This document shows, piece after piece, positions 22,587 to 40,051 of a stretch of DNA of 51,095 nucleotides. Where the stretch lies: contig CAZHLZ010000001.1 in the NCBI GenBank assembly GCA_964532475.1, positions 14,891 through 65,985 of the forward strand, read 5' to 3'. The translations under genes and the position numbers were made by a program. The stretch is from an uncultured Chitinophaga sp. (GTDB lineage Bacteria > Bacteroidota > Bacteroidia > Flavobacteriales_D > Crocinitomicaceae). Position 1 is the first letter of the stretch; each line of letters begins with the position of its first letter. The notes beneath the pieces are model-generated. The model was given only the letters and a program-made list of their open reading frames with translations, was not told where the DNA came from and ran no database searches.

Positions 22587-22910
22587 ATGATAACAGTAAC
22601 AGAAACAGCAAAAAAACAAGCAATTCGTTTGATGGAAGACGAAGGAAAAGCTGGATATTTTATACGAGTTGGAGTTGATGGTGGAGGTTGTTCAGGATTA
22701 ATGTACCAACTTACATTTGACAATGAGGAGAAAGAAGGAGACAAAGCTTTTGAGGATAACGGAATTAAAGTTGTCGTAGACAAAAAAAGTTTCTTGTACT
22801 TAATAGGTACAACTTTAGATTTTTCAGGAGGCTTAAATGGAAAAGGCTTTGTTTTTAATAATCCAAATGCAAATCGCACATGTGGGTGTGGGGAGAGCTT
22901 TTCATTATAA
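22587..22910 (+). CDS. sufA: Iron-sulfur cluster insertion protein (HesB/IscA/SufA family)
   Basis: C-terminal CGCGESF motif; 107 aa; first gene of the suf operon. Confidence 0.9.
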   Translation: MITVTETAKKQAIRLMEDEGKAGYFIRVGVDGGGCSGLMYQLTFDNEEKEGDKAFEDNGIKVVVDKKSFLYLIGTTLDFSGGLNGKGFVFNNPNANRTCGCGESFSL

Positions 22911-22975
22911 AATTGAAAATGTAGAATGAAAAATTGAAAATTATTTTACATTCTCAATTTTCAATTCTCAATTTA
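22911..22975. repeat. Heptad-phased palindromic array with no gene inside (sufA|sufB junction)
   Basis: AATTGAA AATGTAG AATGAAA AATTGAA AATTATT, then TTACATT CTCAATT TTCAATT CTCAATT, with strict 7-nt phasing. Confidence 0.8.
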
Positions 22976-22982
22976 AATAAAA

Positions 22983-24437: not shown

Positions 24438-24443
24438 AGCCCT

Positions 24444-24478
24444 AAATTACAAAATAGCAAATTACAGATTGCAGATTA
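24444..24478. repeat. Heptad word array upstream of four-helix-bundle gene 1
   Basis: AAATTAC AAAATAG CAAATTA CAGATTG CAGATTA. 24446-24470 matches 24855-24879 at 23 of 25 nt as a direct repeat. Confidence 0.8.
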
Positions 24479-24852
24479 TGGCAACAATTGAAAAATTTGA
24501 AGAATTAGAAGTTTGGAGAACAAGTATGGATTTATGTACTGAAATTTACAAATTGACTAATACTGAATTATTTTCTAAAGATTTTGGATTAAAAGACCAA
24601 ATTAGAAGATGTTCAGTTTCTGTTCCTTCAAATATTTCAGAAGGTTACGAAAGAGATGGAAAAAATCAATTTTTGTATTTTTTAGCGATTGCTAAAGGAT
24701 CTTGCGGAGAATTAAGAACACAATTACGAATTGCTTATAATTTGAATTACATAAGTAACGAGGAATATGAAATTTTGAATGAAAAATGTTTATCAACAAG
24801 TAAACAAATTAAAGGGTTTATTAAATATTTGAAGAGTTATAAAGGGAAATAA
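24478..24852 (+). CDS. Four-helix-bundle protein (23S rRNA intervening-sequence protein / Avd-like family)
   Basis: The pattern FEELEVW...A..L...IY.LT, SVPSNISEGY and GSCGELRTQL is characteristic of the TIGR02436/PF05635 family. The ATG at 24478 is preferred over the TTG at 24469. Confidence 0.8.
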   Translation: MATIEKFEELEVWRTSMDLCTEIYKLTNTELFSKDFGLKDQIRRCSVSVPSNISEGYERDGKNQFLYFLAIAKGSCGELRTQLRIAYNLNYISNEEYEILNEKCLSTSKQIKGFIKYLKSYKGK

Positions 24853-24918
24853 AGATTACAAATTAACAAATTACAGATTATCCTAATCTGACAATCTGCC
24901 AATTTGTAATCTGCAATT
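24853..24918. repeat. Heptad-phased hairpin downstream of four-helix-bundle gene 1
   Basis: AGATTAC AAATTAA CAAATTA CAGATTA, tcc, then TAATCTG ACAATCTG CCAATTTG TAATCTG. There are perfect 7-bp pairings at the inner and outer ends. Confidence 0.8.
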
Positions 24919-24927
24919 AAGAATAAT

Positions 24928-25686
24928 ATGTTAAAAATCACAAATTTACACGCCAATATCGATGGCAAAGAGATCTTAAAAGGTTTAAACCTTGAAGTAA
25001 AAGCAGGTGAAGTTCATGCAATCATGGGGCCAAACGGTGCAGGGAAAAGTACCTTGGCATCAGTTTTGGCTGGCCGCGAAGAATACGAAGTAACTGATGG
25101 TTCCGTTGATTTTGACGGAAAGGATTTGTTGGATTTAGCAACAGAAGATCGTGCAAGGGAAGGATTGTTTTTGGCATTCCAATATCCAGTTGAAATTCCA
25201 GGAGTTTCAAACGTAAATTTCTTGCGAACTGCAATTAACGAAATCAGAGAATATAAAGGTGAAGAAGGAATTTCTGCGAAAGATTTTATGACAATGGTCC
25301 GTGAAAAATCAAAAATAGTTGAGTTGGATGCTAAATTGGCATCACGTTCGGTGAATGAAGGTTTTTCAGGAGGTGAGAAAAAACGTAATGAAATTTTCCA
25401 AATGGCGATGTTGGATCCAAAATTGTCTATTTTAGATGAAACGGATTCTGGTTTGGATATTGACGCTTTACGTATCGTTGCAAACGGTGTAAATACGCTA
25501 AAATCAAAAGATAACGCAACAGTTGTGATTACGCACTACCAACGTTTGTTAGATTACATCGTTCCAGATTTTGTTCATGTTTTATATGACGGAAAAATTG
25601 TGAAAACTGGAGGAAAAGAGTTAGCTTTAGAATTGGAAGAAAAAGGCTACGATTGGATTAAAGAAGAATTGAAAATTGAGAATTAA
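24928..25686 (+). CDS. sufC: Fe-S cluster assembly ATPase SufC
   Basis: Walker A GPNGAGKST, ABC signature FSGGEKKR and Walker B ILDETDSGLD. Confidence 0.95.
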   Translation: MLKITNLHANIDGKEILKGLNLEVKAGEVHAIMGPNGAGKSTLASVLAGREEYEVTDGSVDFDGKDLLDLATEDRAREGLFLAFQYPVEIPGVSNVNFLRTAINEIREYKGEEGISAKDFMTMVREKSKIVELDAKLASRSVNEGFSGGEKKRNEIFQMAMLDPKLSILDETDSGLDIDALRIVANGVNTLKSKDNATVVITHYQRLLDYIVPDFVHVLYDGKIVKTGGKELALELEEKGYDWIKEELKIEN

Positions 25687-25751
25687 GAATTAAGAAGGTA
25701 GAATTGAATATGTAACATCAAATTTCATTTTCAATTCTTCACTCTGCATTC
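25666..25751. repeat. Heptad-phased palindromic array with no gene inside (sufC|sufD junction)
   Basis: GAATTGA AAATTGA GAATTAA GAATTAA GAAGGTA GAATTGA, a spacer, then TTCATTT TCAATTC TTCACTC TGCATTC. It overlaps the last 7 codons of sufC. Confidence 0.8.
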
Positions 25752-25766
25752 ACCATTATTACACAT

Positions 25767-30636: not shown

Positions 30637-30645
30637 TAAAAAAAC

Positions 30646-31017
30646 AAATCATAAGCCGGGTTCTGTTTCAACAAATTCAAGAAGAAAGTGTTTAGCTATC
30701 ATTTCTCTAGTTCCGACTTCACAATCGGAATCAATCGACCTACCCTCTGAGTTGGACGAGCAGCCCTTTTATCCGAAAAATCGGAAATCCCCAGTTTACA
30801 TGGTCTTTCAGTTCGTAAGGTTTACCTTGCACTAATTATCACTAATTAGACGGTGAGCTCTTACCTCGCCTTTTCACCTTTTCCCCAAACAAGTTCGGGG
30901 TAGTTTTCCTTTCTGTGGCACTTTCTGTCTTCGTTTACACGAATCCTTCCCGTTAGGAAGTACGATGCTCTGCACTGCCCAGACTTTCCTCCTACCGTAG
31001 CAGGCGATAGCTGATTT
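30646..31017 (-). ncRNA. rnpB: RNase P RNA, bacterial type A
   Basis: On the minus strand, GAGGAAAGTCTGGGC lies near the 5' end (plus 30976-30990) and ACAGAACCCGGCTTA near the 3' end (plus 30652-30666). The P1 pairing is AAATCA / TGATTT. Length is about 372 nt. Confidence 0.85.
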
Positions 31018-31024
31018 GTAAAAA

Positions 31025-35592: not shown

Positions 35593-38262
35593 TTAAAGAA
35601 TCACACTTCCCAACCAGCGTTCCATTTCTTCAAACGACTTTCCTTTTCGTTCAGCAATGGATTTCACTTGCTCGTTAGTGATTTTTCCTAATCCAAAATA
35701 CTTGGCTTGTGGATGCGCAAAATACCAACCTGAAACAGAGGCTGTTGGATACATCGCTAAACTTTCAGTTAAACTTACTCCGCTCAATTTCGTTGCATCT
35801 AAGATTTCAAATAAAGTTACTTTTTCGGTGTGGTCTGGACAAGCTGGATATCCTGGTGCAGGACGAATTCCACGGTATTTTTCTTTGATTAAATCGTCGT
35901 TTTGTAAGTTTTCGTCGCTCGCGTAGCCCCAATAATCTTTACGAACCAATTCGTGCAAATGTTCCGCAAAAGCTTCTGCCAAACGATCTCCAAGTGCTTT
36001 TAGCAAAATAGAAGAATAATCATCGTGGTCTTTTTCAAATTCAGCTACTTTTTCGTCTAAGCCAAGGCCCGTTGTGACAACAAAGGCACCCAAATAATCA
36101 GCAAAATTCGTTTCTTTAGGTGCAATAAAGTCTGCTAAGGCAATATTCGGAACTCCTTGCGCTTTTGTTGTTTGTTGACGTAAACTGTATTGAACAGCTT
36201 GTATTTTTGAACGCGAATCATCGGTATAAATTTCGATATCATCTCCAATCGCATTCGCTGGAAATAAACCAAATACAGCATTCGCTTGCAACCATTTTTC
36301 ACTGACAATTTTCTGCAACATTTCTTGTGCATCAGCAAAAAGTTTTGTTGCTTCCACTCCAACCACTTCGTCTTCTAAAATATTCGGATATTTTCCGTGC
36401 AGTTCCCACGTTTGGAAAAAAGGTGTCCAATCGATGTAAGGAACTAATTTATGTAAGGGATAAGCTTTCAATTCCTTAACGCCCAATTCTTTTGGTTTCG
36501 CAATATCTTCAGCCTTCCATTCAATTTGGAATTTATTTTTTTGTGCTTGTTCTAAAGAAAGTAAATTCTTTTCTGAACGGTGCTTTTCGTGGTGTTCGCG
36601 TAGTTTTTGATAATCTGCTTTTAGCTCATTGACAAAATCGTCTTTTTTGTGTCCCAATAAACTTTCCACAACTGTAACTGCTCGAGAAGCATCTAAGACG
36701 TGAACCGTTTGTCCTTTGGTGTAATTTTGTTCAATTTTTACGGCAGTATGAACTCGTGAAGTTGTCGCACCACCAATCATCAAAGGAATCGACAAGCCAG
36801 CACGTTCCATTTCTTTAGCAACATGCACCATTTCATCCAAAGAAGGAGTAATCAAACCACTTAATCCAATCACATCCACATTTTCTTTGATGGCAGTTTC
36901 GATGATTTTTTCCGTTGGAACCATCACACCAATATCGATCACTTCATAGTTATTACAGCCTAAAACAACACCCACAATATTTTTTCCAATGTCGTGAACG
37001 TCGCCTTTTACAGTTGCCATCAAGACTTTTCCTGCTGAGGAACTTTTTCCATTTTTTTCGGCCTCAATATAAGGAAGTAAAACGGCAACAGCTTTCTTCA
37101 TTACACGAGCAGATTTTACAACTTGTGGCAAGAACATTTTTCCGCTACCGAATAAATCTCCAACCACGTTCATTCCATCCATCAATGGACCTTCAATCAC
37201 TTCAATTGGTCGCGCATATAATTTTCTGCATTCTTCCGTGTCTTCGTCAATAAATTCAACGATTCCTTTTACCAAGGCATGTTTTAATCGTTCTTGCACA
37301 GAAACATTTCTCCACGATAAATCCACTTCTTTCTTAGTGGCATCGCCTTTCACTGTTTCCGCAAATTCTAATAATCTTTCAGTAGCGTCAGGTCTGCGAT
37401 TCAACATCACATCTTCCACATGTTCCAACAAATCTTTCGGGATATCGTCGTAAATCTCAATCATCGTTGGATTCACAATTCCCATGTCCATTCCTTCTTT
37501 GATTGCATGATACAAAAACACGGAATGCATGGCTTCACGCACTTTGTTATTTCCTCTAAATGAGAAAGAAACATTTGAAACACCACCACTTACATGCGCA
37601 CCTGGCAGATTTGTACGAATCCATTTTGTCGCTCTGAAAAAATCCAAGGCATTGTTATTGTGTTCGTCCATGCCCGTTGCCACAGGGAAAATATTTGGAT
37701 CGAAAATAATATCCTGAGCTGGGAAATTTACTTTATCTACCAAAACACGGTAAGAGCGTTCGCAAATTTCAATTCTTCGTTCATACGAATCCGCTTGACC
37801 TTGTTCATCAAAAGCCATCACAATTACTGCTGCACCGTAACGTTTGATTTTTTTGGCTTGAGCAATGAAGTTTTCTTCTCCTTCTTTCAAGGAAATTGAG
37901 TTTACAATACCTTTTCCTTGAATGCATTGCAAACCAGCTTCAATGATTTCCCATTTCGAACTGTCAATCATCACTGGAATACGCGAAATATCTGGTTCAG
38001 AAGCCATCAAATTCAAAAATTTAACCATCGCTTCTTTACCGTCAATCATTCCTTCATCCATATTCACATCGATGATTTGCGCACCACCTTCAACCTGCTC
38101 CAAGGCAACAGAAAGAGCATCTTCAAAGCGATTTTCTTGAATCATGCGCAAAAAAGCACGTGAGCCAGTTACGTTGGTGCGTTCACCTATGTTGATGAAA
38201 TTTGATTCTGGCGTTACAACCAATGGCTCAAGACCGGATAATTTTAATGGGGGTAAATTCAT
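35593..38262 (-). CDS. metH: Methionine synthase, pterin-binding + B12-binding + AdoMet-activation modules
   Basis: Begins at the LKLSGLEPL linker motif. [12 protein letters not shown] is the B12 DxHxxG motif. The 889 aa are collinear with E. coli MetH from about residue 345 to the end. Confidence 0.93.
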
Positions 38263-38271
38263 AATAATTTA

Positions 38272-38321
38272 GAATGAAGAATGTAGAATTGAGAATATTG
38301 TTCCGTATTCAATCCACATCC
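38272..38321. repeat. Heptad-phased array at the 3' flank of four-helix-bundle gene 2
   Basis: GAATGAA GAATGTA GAATTGA GAATATT followed by a degenerate inverted copy (ATTCAATCCACATCC). Confidence 0.8.
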
Positions 38322-38328
38322 TTAAAAT

Positions 38329-38688
38329 TTAGATTTTATTTGTTCTTTGTTTCGTTGTTAAAATACTACTGGAAAGCATTTTATGAATTTCATTTGACTT
38401 TGAATACAAATTGTCAAATTCATTTTTATTTAAATAATTAGAATCTAATAGTAATTCTAACCAATACTGAGATTCACCACATTCTTTTAAAGAAATCGAT
38501 AATTTGTGAATGAAATCAGCTGGACTTTGAGCATTATTTGCTTCACGAATGTTAGCTCCAACTGAAGTTGCTGATCTTACTAATTGTTTACTCAAAATGA
38601 ATTCTTTTTTTTCTATCAATTGTTTGTAGAGAGAAATGGAGTCAAGAGCAAATGAATAACTTTTCGTTTTTAAAAAATTTTCTTTCAT
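38329..38688 (-). CDS. Four-helix-bundle protein (23S rRNA intervening-sequence protein / Avd-like family)
   Basis: Family pattern: SYSFALDSISLYKQL, RSATSVGANIREA, FIHKLSISLKECGESQYWLELL. Confidence 0.8.
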   Translation of the reverse strand: MKENFLKTKSYSFALDSISLYKQLIEKKEFILSKQLVRSATSVGANIREANNAQSPADFIHKLSISLKECGESQYWLELLLDSNYLNKNEFDNLYSKSNEIHKMLSSSILTTKQRTNKI

Positions 38689-38725
38689 AATGTTTAGTTT
38701 AAAAGTGAAATCTAATTTAATAATA

Positions 38726-38767
38726 AATTCTCAATTCTCCACTTTTAATTCTACATTCTCTATTTTA
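38726..38767. repeat. Heptad-phased array at the 5' flank of four-helix-bundle gene 2
   Basis: AATTCTC AATTCTC CACTTTT AATTCTA CATTCTC TATTTTA. 38747-38759 is the perfect 13-nt reverse complement of 38278-38290. Confidence 0.85.
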
Positions 38768-39747
38768 CGAGGTTCATACTTTTTCGCCAAATCCGCTATC
38801 ACTTTGATATGTGCCGGAGTTGTTCCGCAACAGCCACCGATGATGTTTACAAGGTGCTCATCCAAAAAGGTTTTGATTTGTTCACCCATGAGTTCTGCAG
38901 TTTCATCGTATTGACCGAACTCGTTTGGTAAACCTGCGTTTGGATGTGCTGAAACGGCGAAGGGAGATTCTTTATCCAAAATCTGCAAATAAGGACGCAT
39001 CATGGAAGCTCCTAAGGCACAGTTTAGACCAATACTTAGCAATGGCATGTGAGAAACTGAAATCAAAAATGCTTCAGTTGTTTGTCCAGTCAAGGTTCTT
39101 CCAGATTGATCGGTAATAGTACCAGAAACCATAATTGGCAATTTCTTATTACGTTCTTCAAAAACCTCATCTATTGCAAACAAGGCAGCCTTTGCGTTTA
39201 AGGTATCAAAAACAGTTTCAACTAACAAAATATCAACTCCACCATCCATCAAGGCATTTACTTGTTGTTTGTAAGCAGTTACCAATTCTTGGAAGGTAAT
39301 CCCTCTAAATCCAGGATCATTTACATCTGGAGAAATGCTTGCAGTTCGGTTTGTTGGACCAATTGAACCGGCAACAAAACGCGGTTTATCAGGATTGAGC
39401 GCTGTGAATTCATCTGCAACTTTTTTGGCAATTTTTGCTGAATGAAAATTAATATCATACACTGCAAATTCTAGATCATAATCCGCTTGCGCGATGGTTG
39501 TTCCAGAAAAAGTATTTGTTTCAGCGATATCTGCACCTGCCTCAAAATATTGACGGTGAATATCTTCTATGATTTCAGGACGTGTCAAGGAAAGTAAATC
39601 GTTGTTTCCTTTTAAAGGCTTGTGGTGATTTTCAAACCAGCCTTTGCGAAAATCTTCTTCTTCGAGTTTATGACGTTGAATCATCGTACCCATTGCTCCG
39701 TCTAAAACAAGAATTCTTTTTTTTAGGATTTCTTCTATTTTGCTCAT
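38731..39747 (-). CDS. metH: Methionine synthase homocysteine-binding (S-methyltransferase) module as a separate ORF
   Basis: LDGAMGT and the GGCCGTTPAHI zinc-ligand motif. It ends at ..YEPRK (E. coli ..APRK linker) plus a 10-aa tail, IENVELKVEN, encoded by the repeat array. The ATG at 39747 is preferred. Confidence 0.9.
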   Translation of the reverse strand: MSKIEEILKKRILVLDGAMGTMIQRHKLEEEDFRKGWFENHHKPLKGNNDLLSLTRPEIIEDIHRQYFEAGADIAETNTFSGTTIAQADYDLEFAVYDINFHSAKIAKKVADEFTALNPDKPRFVAGSIGPTNRTASISPDVNDPGFRGITFQELVTAYKQQVNALMDGGVDILLVETVFDTLNAKAALFAIDEVFEERNKKLPIMVSGTITDQSGRTLTGQTTEAFLISVSHMPLLSIGLNCALGASMMRPYLQILDKESPFAVSAHPNAGLPNEFGQYDETAELMGEQIKTFLDEHLVNIIGGCCGTTPAHIKVIADLAKKYEPRKIENVELKVEN

Positions 39748-39801
39748 AATATCTAATTTATACTTTAAAACATACAAATTAAGAGGGTTGATGAACAAAC
39801 A

Positions 39802-39923
39802 CTTATCTTTTCAGTCAAATTACTGATAGGATTTGGCACCGGTTTTCCAATCCCGATTAATCGGGACTTATAGTTGGTTGCCAAGGTTTCGTAGGGCCTT
39901 ATCCCTCCACCTTTCTTAATAAG
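39802..39923 (-). promoter_or_regulatory. SAM-I (S-box) riboswitch
   Basis: The minus strand reads CUUAUUAAGAAAGGUGGAGGGAUAAGGCCCUACGAAACCUUGGCAACC...GGUGCCAAAUCCUAUCAG...GAAAAGAUAAG. This matches the S-box core and the P1 pairing CUUAU/AUAAG. Confidence 0.85.
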
Positions 39924-40051
39924 TTTCGCTTAAAAAAATTGAATTTTGATAAGCTTATGATTTTAAAGAACTAAGGCAAAATTACTAAAAATTCTTAAAA
40001 AAATTGTTATATTTAAATAAATTTTGAAAACTTACGTTTTAATATACTAAA

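Follow-up and report, generated by a model that had tools for sequence, protein, structure and literature searches.

The 51,095-nt stretch of DNA analysed here (the window, to which all coordinates refer unless another locus is named) carries the gene for cobalamin-dependent methionine synthase, metH, as two open reading frames (ORFs), and in the spacer between them lies a 119-aa four-helix-bundle gene of the PF05635 family bracketed by two arrays of 7-nt repeats (heptads). We propose that this insert is probably a cassette of the intervening sequence (IVS) type, lodged in the spacer of an already split metH, which would be transcribed with the operon, form a stem and, by analogy with the IVSs of ribosomal RNA (rRNA) genes, be a substrate for RNase III. 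The cassette consists of some five heptads at its 5' side, a leader that is conserved, a 119-aa PF05635 gene judged to be kept functional and a reverse-complementary 3' array, and would be carried whole as part of the riboswitch-controlled metH mRNA. Pairing of the two arms would be expected to give an imperfect, ~30-35-bp stem with the ORF in its loop, so that the stop codon of the homocysteine (Hcy)-binding half of MetH comes to lie beside the start codon of the downstream half. Such a stem may be cut by RNase III as rRNA IVSs are, and the host would tolerate the cassette, the two halves of MetH being separate polypeptides anyway. The match to the architecture of rRNA IVSs, the recurrence of the element at the same junction in many lineages and the generality of heptad arrays in the gene family go beyond an earlier note on this DNA, which had described the insert from its letters.

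The genes of the metH operon all lie on the minus strand. At the head of the operon is a SAM-I riboswitch (39800..39925, minus strand; full-length match to Rfam RF00162 at 76.5 bits, gathering cut-off 44.4), directly upstream of the Hcy ORF, which bears out the earlier note's claim that the split gene stands behind such a switch. The Hcy-binding half (38731..39747; 338 aa from its ATG; PF02574, E 1.5e-98) covers positions 7-342 of the NCBIfam metH model and ends in ..KKYEPRKIENVELKVEN*. The downstream half (35593..38262; 889 aa), which combines the pterin-binding, B12-binding and activation regions in the domains Pterin_bind, B12-binding_2, B12-binding and Met_synt_B12 (PF00809, PF02607, PF02310 and PF02965), covers positions 344-1228 of the same model with a score of 1556.6. 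Together the halves amount to 338 + 889 = 1227 aa, and the 468-nt gap between them holds the 119-aa ORF (38329..38688) on the same strand as both halves and the riboswitch. The ORF ends, the gap, the summed length and the same-strand four-helix-bundle gene all read as the earlier note gave them, and the last can now be assigned to PF05635 (TIGR02436; S23p/Avd-like). Its product matches PF05635 at E 4.6e-31 (107.6 bits, cut-off 33.8; model positions 7-105 of 106) and TIGR02436 at E 8e-33 (112.9 bits, cut-off 24), thus exceeding both curated cut-offs and belonging to the family. It also matches a crystallised Bacteroides homologue (PDB 2RLD, an entry with 5 chains; E 6e-34), and the PADLOC models yielded no family for it at E <= 0.01.

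The two arrays span the spacer on either side of this gene, from the last codons of the Hcy half to just before the downstream ATG. On the sense strand, the 5' arm (38725..38770, minus strand) reads GAGAATG TAGAATT AAAAGTG GAGAATT GAGAATT and the 3' arm (38263..38299, minus strand) ATTCTCA ATTCTAC ATTCTTC ATTCTAA, giving five heptads in the former and four in the latter, which ends no more than 10 nt before the downstream ATG. Tandem Repeats Finder (TRF) detects the 5' arm as an array of period 21 (three 7-nt units) at 38726-38767 and the 3' arm as an array of period 7 at 38266-38289; both are also recovered by folding, the 5' arm by lag analysis and the 3' arm as part of an inverted repeat, and a lag of 7 is the top periodicity in both flanks. 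The heptads that the earlier note had quoted at 38272-38299 and 38726-38760 are present exactly as written, and its claim that the upstream array supplies the tail and stop codon of the Hcy ORF stands, the final 10 codons (IENVELKVEN) and the TGA lying inside the 5' array. The 13-nt perfect inverted repeat that it had pointed out was likewise found where it had placed it: AGAATGTAGAATT occurs once per strand in the whole window, at 38278 and, reverse-complemented, at 38759, and is the perfectly paired part of a 31-nt, 84%-complementary inverted repeat. Among inverted repeats with arms <800 nt apart, this is the second longest in the window, the longest being located between sufA and sufB (sufA|sufB). 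When joined by a GAAA linker, the arms are predicted to fold at -24.9 kcal/mol (z = -4.5), with 0/200 shuffles folding as well, and the long-range stem between them is present in both the minimum-free-energy and the centroid structures of the full 536-nt RNA. Arms-only folds are used here in place of a fold of the whole element, whose energy is uninformative.

The sequence of the heptads is specific to each element, and the 5' and 3' arrays of one element are reverse-complementary to each other. Thus, GAGAATG / TAGAATT faces ATTCTCA / ATTCTAC at the metH junction of the window, AGTGAAG / AGTTAAA faces TTTTAAT / TTCACTT at locus L001, which comes from Lake Mendota time-series metagenomes, GAGAATG / GAAAATT faces AATTTTT / CATTCTT at L120, and ATTACAG / ATTGCAG faces its complements in another element of the window, located between sufB and sufC (sufB|sufC). 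Alignments of the window, L001 and L120 reveal that the changes in the arms are compensatory, and the arms-only folds of the latter two reach z = -4.2 and z = -6.1, respectively. A set of 35 non-redundant elements has among its members 15 PF05635 genes carried on plasmids (of Bacteroidota, Cyanobacteriota, Spirochaetota, Chloroflexota and Bacillota). Here the best ungapped helix had a mean of 14.6 for cognate and 7.8 for non-cognate flanks (Mann-Whitney p = 6e-18), and the cognate helix lay above the non-cognate 99th percentile in 16 of the 35. Ungapped helices were scored in preference to an RNAduplex-style comparison of cognate and non-cognate flanks (-36.8 versus -29.4 kcal/mol), which is noisy because the arrays share GAAT/ATTC cores. 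Under strict scoring, the sense-strand helices contain 24 G:U against 13 A:C pairs (p = 0.049), a weak hint that pairing matters in RNA; a permissive version of this test based on local alignments gave 147 versus 178 and is noisy.

Between the 5' arm and the PF05635 ATG, alignments and flank listings delimit the leader (38689..38724, minus strand; TTAAATTAGATTTCACTTTTAAACTAAACATT), which is kept at L001, L118, L120 and L122. At these four loci, as in the window, it reads TTAAATTAGATTTCACTTTTAA, and in most other elements at the junction (L075, L078, L084, L088, L089, L092 and others) the region ~12-40 nt before the PF05635 ATG reads TTTTTGA-TAA(A/C)TTAAAG and then becomes rich in A. The conserved leader could be a promoter of the Bacteroidota type, a translation signal or a protein-binding site. 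A scan of the gap for sigma-70 promoters and terminators, with a tool whose coverage excludes Bacteroidota promoters, found no excess over shuffled sequences. Because of this result, and because PF05635 genes are strongly co-oriented with their neighbours (see below), co-transcription of the three ORFs behind the riboswitch is plausible.

Comparison of related genomes indicates that the metH split is ancestral in the family and that the cassette entered an already split gene. A scan of species-representative genomes for the Hcy ORF returned 80 loci, all from Crocinitomicaceae or related Flavobacteriales, and metH is split at the same linker in 80/80 of them: at every locus a conserved ..PRK is followed within a few codons by the Hcy stop, and ..LKLSGLEPL lies just behind the start of a separate ORF. 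With the window included (n = 81), stop and start overlap or lie <=25 nt apart at 50 junctions, which bear no trace of arrays and are probably translationally coupled, and a further 24 have spacers of intermediate length (26-200 nt). A PF05635 gene is present at six junctions (the window, L001, L075, L076, L078 and L079), and a single one (L071) has an unrelated acetyltransferase-like (GNAT) ORF instead. It is this combination of a uniform split, 50 tight junctions and only six with the gene that supports a pre-existing split.

The earlier note had left open two orders of events, insertion of the element into a pre-existing split and creation of the split by the insertion. The first agrees with these counts and the second does not. 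In favour of the second, in which the element divided a formerly fused metH, are the position of the split exactly in the Hcy/pterin linker, the array-encoded Hcy tail and stop codon in the window, and the recurrence of the element at this junction. Given that all 80 relatives are split, that 50 junctions are overlapping or nearly abutting without array trace, that the gene is found at so few of them, and that stand-alone Hcy proteins are also found in much more distant relatives, we find this explanation hardly credible. Among relatives 45-63% identical, both stand-alone Hcy proteins (~325-360 aa) and fused proteins (~1170-1260 aa) were found, in a representative search that carries no taxonomy and therefore shows only that both forms exist at this level of identity. 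The residues after ..PRK are variable in all genomes and array-encoded in the element-bearing loci (IENVELKVEN* in the window, FHSEELKVKN* in L001), and we regard the array-supplied tail and stop as a consequence of insertion, not as evidence that insertion caused the split. The earlier note had also named, as an outcome that would speak against array-derived ORF ends, an ancestral split with short spacers and identical ORF ends; the split is indeed ancestral and 50 of the 81 junctions are tight, but the ORF ends are not identical. For metH the result is thus deflationary, the split being old and ordinary and the insert a passenger.

This passenger, which we read as an IVS-type cassette, appears to be horizontally exchanged yet faithful to its site. 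The three closest database homologues of the 119-aa protein (93, 87 and 82% identical) are all located at the metH junction, as are most metagenome relatives at 58-70% identity. The ratio of non-synonymous to synonymous substitution rates (dN/dS) among the PF05635 ORFs at the junction is 0.04-0.12, indicative of purifying selection, and for this reason we consider the protein, as judged from its sequences, to be kept functional. The argument for horizontal exchange draws on L118, whose cassette gene is 90.8% identical to that of the window at the nucleotide level, as against 74% for the Hcy half (87% in protein) and 84% for the pterin half, with the high similarity ending at the downstream ATG. 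It does not draw on L001, because there the full-length flanks are only 90-93% identical (dS ~0.5) and identity has no clear peak at the junction, the cassette gene being 78% identical in nucleotides and 69% in protein; a description of this pair as 99%-identical flanks around a 70%-identical cassette was rejected on the same full-length comparison. Across all pairs, cassette dN is not correlated with host dS (Spearman 0.14, p = 0.34). Since the divergence of the cassette is in this way decoupled from that of its hosts, the ORF together with its arrays seems to have been repeatedly replaced in, or transferred into, this one spacer. The number of heptads in the arrays changes between elements in 7-nt steps. 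Recombination via shared heptad arrays is offered as an idea for the route, not as a result.

These observations would also be compatible with an element that acts at the level of DNA, in which the arrays are terminal inverted repeats or recombination substrates (hairpins, cruciforms or slippage-prone microhomology) by which cassettes insert or are replaced, and the RNA stem would be a by-product. Such an element would account for the presence or absence of the cassette among close relatives, its decoupled divergence and the variation in array copy number by 7-nt steps. It would likewise account for the end of the similarity between the window and L118 at the downstream ATG, which implies that the transferred unit includes the arrays, and ORF-less hairpins found at the same site in L003, L005 and L036 could be its scars or landing pads. 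However, neither the cassette nor its immediate surroundings encode a transposase or integrase, and the arms differ even within one genome (GAGAATT versus ATTACAG type), which a sequence-specific recombinase would not tolerate. Furthermore, the bias towards sense orientation in operons and the slight excess of G:U pairs would not be expected of a purely DNA-level feature. On balance we judge this explanation unlikely.

The junction has other occupants in some relatives. A ~200-aa acetyltransferase-like ORF (..LRPLVQSDAVHLVPFALNEPDTW..; L071:1076-1695) takes the place of the PF05635 gene in a Crocinitomicaceae metagenome-assembled genome, so the metH spacer tolerates other passengers. GC-rich hairpin repeats at the junction of the close relatives L002 (5005-5108) and L004 (5002-5141) (TTTCCCTCCTTGAGGAGGGATTAAGGGAGG ... 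CCCCCTCCAAAGGGGGAGAGG) look like another small palindromic repeat family, and tandem repeats of ~22 nt (AGCCGTCGGTTCTCGAATGA and variants; L018:4980-5149) run from inside the Hcy tail across the junction. On the metagenome contig L122 (2071-3357), gene calling gives two overlapping ORFs (420 and 486 aa) for the downstream MetH half, which may be due to a further split, to a frameshift or to an error of assembly.

The earlier note had counted the metH insert as a second element, and the first that this implied is real. It is a sister element in the sufB|sufC spacer (24440..24927, plus strand) with a PF05635-like ORF (24478..24852, plus strand; phmmer E 5.6e-09), flanked by ATTACAA/ATTACAG/ATTGCAG heptads and their complements, a heptad family unlike that of the metH cassette; TRF reports a period-7 array at 24855-24880. 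The 3' flank of this element also folds on itself (inverted repeat 24853-24872 versus 24893-24912). Two neighbouring spacers carry heptads without an ORF. The sufA|sufB spacer is filled by a heptad hairpin (22911..22982, plus strand; TRF period 7 at 22909-22942 and 22950-22973) whose heptads belong to the same GAAAATT/GAGAATG family as those of the metH cassette; this is the longest inverted repeat in the window mentioned above, and it is predicted to fold at -16.3 kcal/mol (z = -2.8). From the stop of sufC to the start of sufD run arrays of the GAGAATT / GAAAATT family (25664..25766, plus strand; TRF period 7 at 25664-25696), which include a perfect 14-nt pair (GAAGAATTGAAAAT / ATTTTCAATTCTTC). 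The fold of this region as a whole is not significant (z = -0.14), and the tail of sufC (..EELKIEN*) is array-encoded, like the Hcy tail (..VELKVEN*). At the metH junction itself, periodicity is strongest at lag 7 in 8 of the 24 intermediate spacers, and clear ORF-less hairpins of inverted arrays are present in L003 (-27.1 kcal/mol, z = -6.1), L005 and L036. These ORF-less hairpins at the metH junction may be cassette remnants or landing sites.

An alternative view of such hairpins is that they serve the host as intercistronic regulatory or stabilising structures, akin to repetitive extragenic palindromic (REP) sequences, bacterial interspersed mosaic elements (BIMEs) or processing sites, and that the PF05635 pentamer is a trans-acting heptad binder encoded in some of their loops. 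The ORF-less hairpins of the sufA|sufB and sufC|sufD spacers, and those that other species have between their metH halves, would fit this view, as would the arrays always abutting the downstream start codon and the strong purifying selection on the protein. Also in line with it are the unknown post-transcriptional factor that MacGregor (PMC4679880) proposed for TAACTGA heptamers just upstream of start codons, the 5 chains of 2RLD, and the crystal of a Xanthomonas PF05635 homologue, described as a homopentamer (Lin 2006, as cited in PMC4990558). Yet 50 of the 81 junctions lack any spacer, so the hairpin must be dispensable for metH; the heptad units are not conserved between elements; heptad binding by the protein is putative; and horizontal exchange looks more selfish than regulatory. 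We therefore hold a host regulatory role to be quite improbable, and return to the IVS-type cassette as the preferred reading.

Heptads are a signature of the PF05635 gene family, not of the metH locus alone. Of the 35 elements, 33 have their strongest periodicity at lag 7 in one flank or both, and 26 in both, compared with 8.4% of random 150-nt windows. Inverted heptamer arrays bracket 15/15 plasmid PF05635 genes, and their composition tracks the G+C content of the genome, as seen in Bernardetia (TAGTGAT x16 versus ATCACTA), Nostoc (GGAGGTC x4 versus CGACCTC), Aulosira (AATTCAA versus TTTGAAT) and Euhalothece (CTGGTCA x12); the arrays of a Chondrinema element (L111) contain TAACTGA / TCAGTTA. 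In an independent set drawn from IMG/VR viral contigs, period-7 arrays were replicated in 19 of 27 elements. Most of the genes sampled are sense-oriented between cistrons, for instance at hsdS|hsdR, DUF1156|HEPN, RND adaptor|permease, csx2|cas1, hydantoinase|carbamoylase-like and acetyltransferase|DegT. The gene shares its orientation with both neighbours at 10 of the 15 plasmid sites (binomial p = 8e-4 versus 0.25) and at four of six chromosomal sites (metH, sufB|sufC, L090/L091 and L099/L101); of the remaining two, L097 was scored for its downstream gene alone, which is co-oriented, and L096 has no call.

Some of these plasmid loci have features of their own. Six of the genes (L108, L109, L110, L114, L115 and L116) are found in defence or CRISPR operons, at hsdS|hsdR, DUF1156|Swt1-HEPN (twice, in two phyla), helicase|N6-methylase, csx2|cas1 and cas2-cas1, and the PF05635 genes in these operons have no PADLOC match themselves. 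The 5' array of a Pseudanabaena element (L116:990-1190) has a 35-nt super-period (5 x 7) in which CTTCATTTTTCCGCCTTTATTCTTCCCTCTTCAAT is repeated, matching five heptads per unit. On a plasmid of Nostoc sp. ATCC 53789 (L112), a PF05635 gene with ~25 ACTTGCG heptads adjoins xisH/xisI, and MacGregor describes similar phylogenetic distributions for TAACTGA arrays and XisH/XisI (PMC4679880). Elsewhere in the window, and apart from any of these elements, lies a bacterial RNase P class A RNA (RF00010, 233 bits; 30640-31019, minus strand).

Several points weigh against an IVS-type cassette and limit the confidence placed in it here. The fold of the whole 536-nt element is no better than that of shuffled sequences (z = -0.9), and the stem in the window is interrupted, its longest perfect run of 13 bp being marginal for RNase III. 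The excess of G:U pairs is borderline, and the complementarity of the arms could be kept by arm-to-arm gene conversion or by the way in which the arrays are generated, and not by selection on RNA. A ribosome has to open the 5' arm before it can complete the Hcy ORF, and 8 of the 27 PF05635 genes on viral contigs have no period-7 arrays. No mobility enzyme was found in or next to the cassette, which leaves its arrival at the same site unexplained. Finally, co-transcription, pairing in vivo and cleavage are argued by analogy and not from transcripts.

To our knowledge, S23p-type IVSs have since the 1990s been known only as curiosities of rRNA genes, and we know of no established function for their ORF or mechanism for their mobility. 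What is new here is the IVS architecture in ordinary mRNA operons, with an ORF under purifying selection and apparent exchange at one precise junction, and the locus ties this cassette to an intergenic excess of heptamers that has been reported, unexplained, in several phyla. It is a real possibility, if something short of probable, that PF05635 genes and self-complementary heptamer arrays form one pan-bacterial 'mRNA intervening sequence' module that resides between cistrons, reaches the same sites by horizontal transfer and gives rise to ORF-less hairpins. If so, the module would unify the S23p-type rRNA IVSs with short tandemly repeated repetitive (STRR) heptamers, GGGAATC / GGGGAYT repeats and TAACTGA arrays, and the pentamer would supply the factor so far lacking for the binding or propagation of heptad arrays, with each subunit perhaps taking one 7-nt unit. 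Should the findings at this locus hold, it would become possible to test directly what purpose the PF05635/Avd-like fold serves outside diversity-generating retroelements (DGRs), why 7-nt repeats are over-represented in bacterial spacers, and how operons put up with, or make use of, intercistronic processing sites of the RNase III type.

Among known systems, the DGRs include Avd, a four-helix-bundle protein that forms a pentamer. The 119-aa and sufB|sufC proteins are distantly like Avd (weak PHROG matches at E 5e-4 and 6e-07, respectively), but the metH cassette has no reverse transcriptase or template/variable repeat pair, its neighbours are the MetH halves, and the only repeats found in the cassette region are the heptad arrays, which places it outside the DGRs. 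REP/BIME palindromes and miniature inverted-repeat transposable elements (MITEs) share with the heptad elements short palindromic repeats in operon spacers and dispersed ORF-less copies, here at sufA|sufB and sufC|sufD. They differ in that the heptad elements consist of period-7 tandem units, have no conserved terminal sequence and in some cases enclose a conserved gene. No transposase was found, and the arms differ between the two elements of the window and between these and the other elements examined, so that the cassette is not assigned to insertion sequences or MITEs. As a split two-gene cobalamin-dependent MetH, the locus has nothing unusual: a separate Hcy ORF and a pterin/B12/activation ORF are adjacent, co-oriented and 1227 aa in total, tight junctions are the norm in the family, and the cassette is an add-on.

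Cyanobacterial STRRs are intergenic arrays of heptamer repeats. Tandem 7-nt units of this simple sequence repeat (SSR)/STRR-like kind are present in spacers of the window at 22909-22973, 24855-24880, 25664-25696, 38266-38289 and 38726-38767. With the intergenic arrays described elsewhere (STRR, GGGAATC, TAACTGA), the elements studied here share period-7 arrays in operon spacers that often end before a start codon, sometimes overlap the upstream ORF, sometimes form inverted pairs and differ in length by 7-nt steps among close relatives. They are distinct from these in that the unit is specific to each element and the two arrays are complementary. Rehm et al. report for Xanthomonas and Nostoc an intergenic excess of the heptamers GGGAATC / GGGGA(T/C)T (PMC4692102), and MacGregor reports TAACTGA arrays in Beggiatoaceae, Cyanobacteria and Bacteroidetes (PMC4679880); some taxa with reported arrays (Nostoc, other cyanobacteria and Bacteroidota) also supplied plasmid PF05635 genes to our set. 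Term searches and sections of PMC4692102 and PMC4679880 gave no mention of PF05635/S23p genes, and a literature search whose coverage excluded subscription journals found no paper linking such genes to heptamer arrays outside the Coxiella IVS.

The rRNA IVSs with an S23p ORF, known from Coxiella as well as Leptospira, Brucella and Xanthomonas, provide the architecture on which the proposed cassette is modelled. In Coxiella burnetii, the IVS in helix 45 of 23S rRNA is 428 nt long, contains a PF05635 ORF in sense orientation and is closed by a 28-bp stem formed by terminal inverted repeats, within which RNase III cuts; 3-4 tandem GACAGAT heptamers, variable in copy number between strains, lie upstream of the ORF, which is decaying (PMC4990558). 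The metH cassette shares with such IVSs the sense PF05635 ORF, a total length of ~430-470 nt, an ORF-enclosing terminal stem, the 5' heptamers, a sporadic distribution with signs of horizontal transfer, and the existence of ORF-less versions. In contrast to them, it stands between mRNA cistrons and not in a helix of 23S or 16S rRNA; the Rfam search detected no rRNA in the window and no match of any kind at E <= 1 in 38150-38900. Heptad arrays occupy both of its flanks, and purifying selection acts on its ORF while that of Coxiella decays; RNase III cleavage has been demonstrated for Coxiella whereas the cassette is known from sequence. Because its host is an mRNA operon, we describe the metH insert as an IVS-like cassette and not as a member of the rRNA-IVS class.

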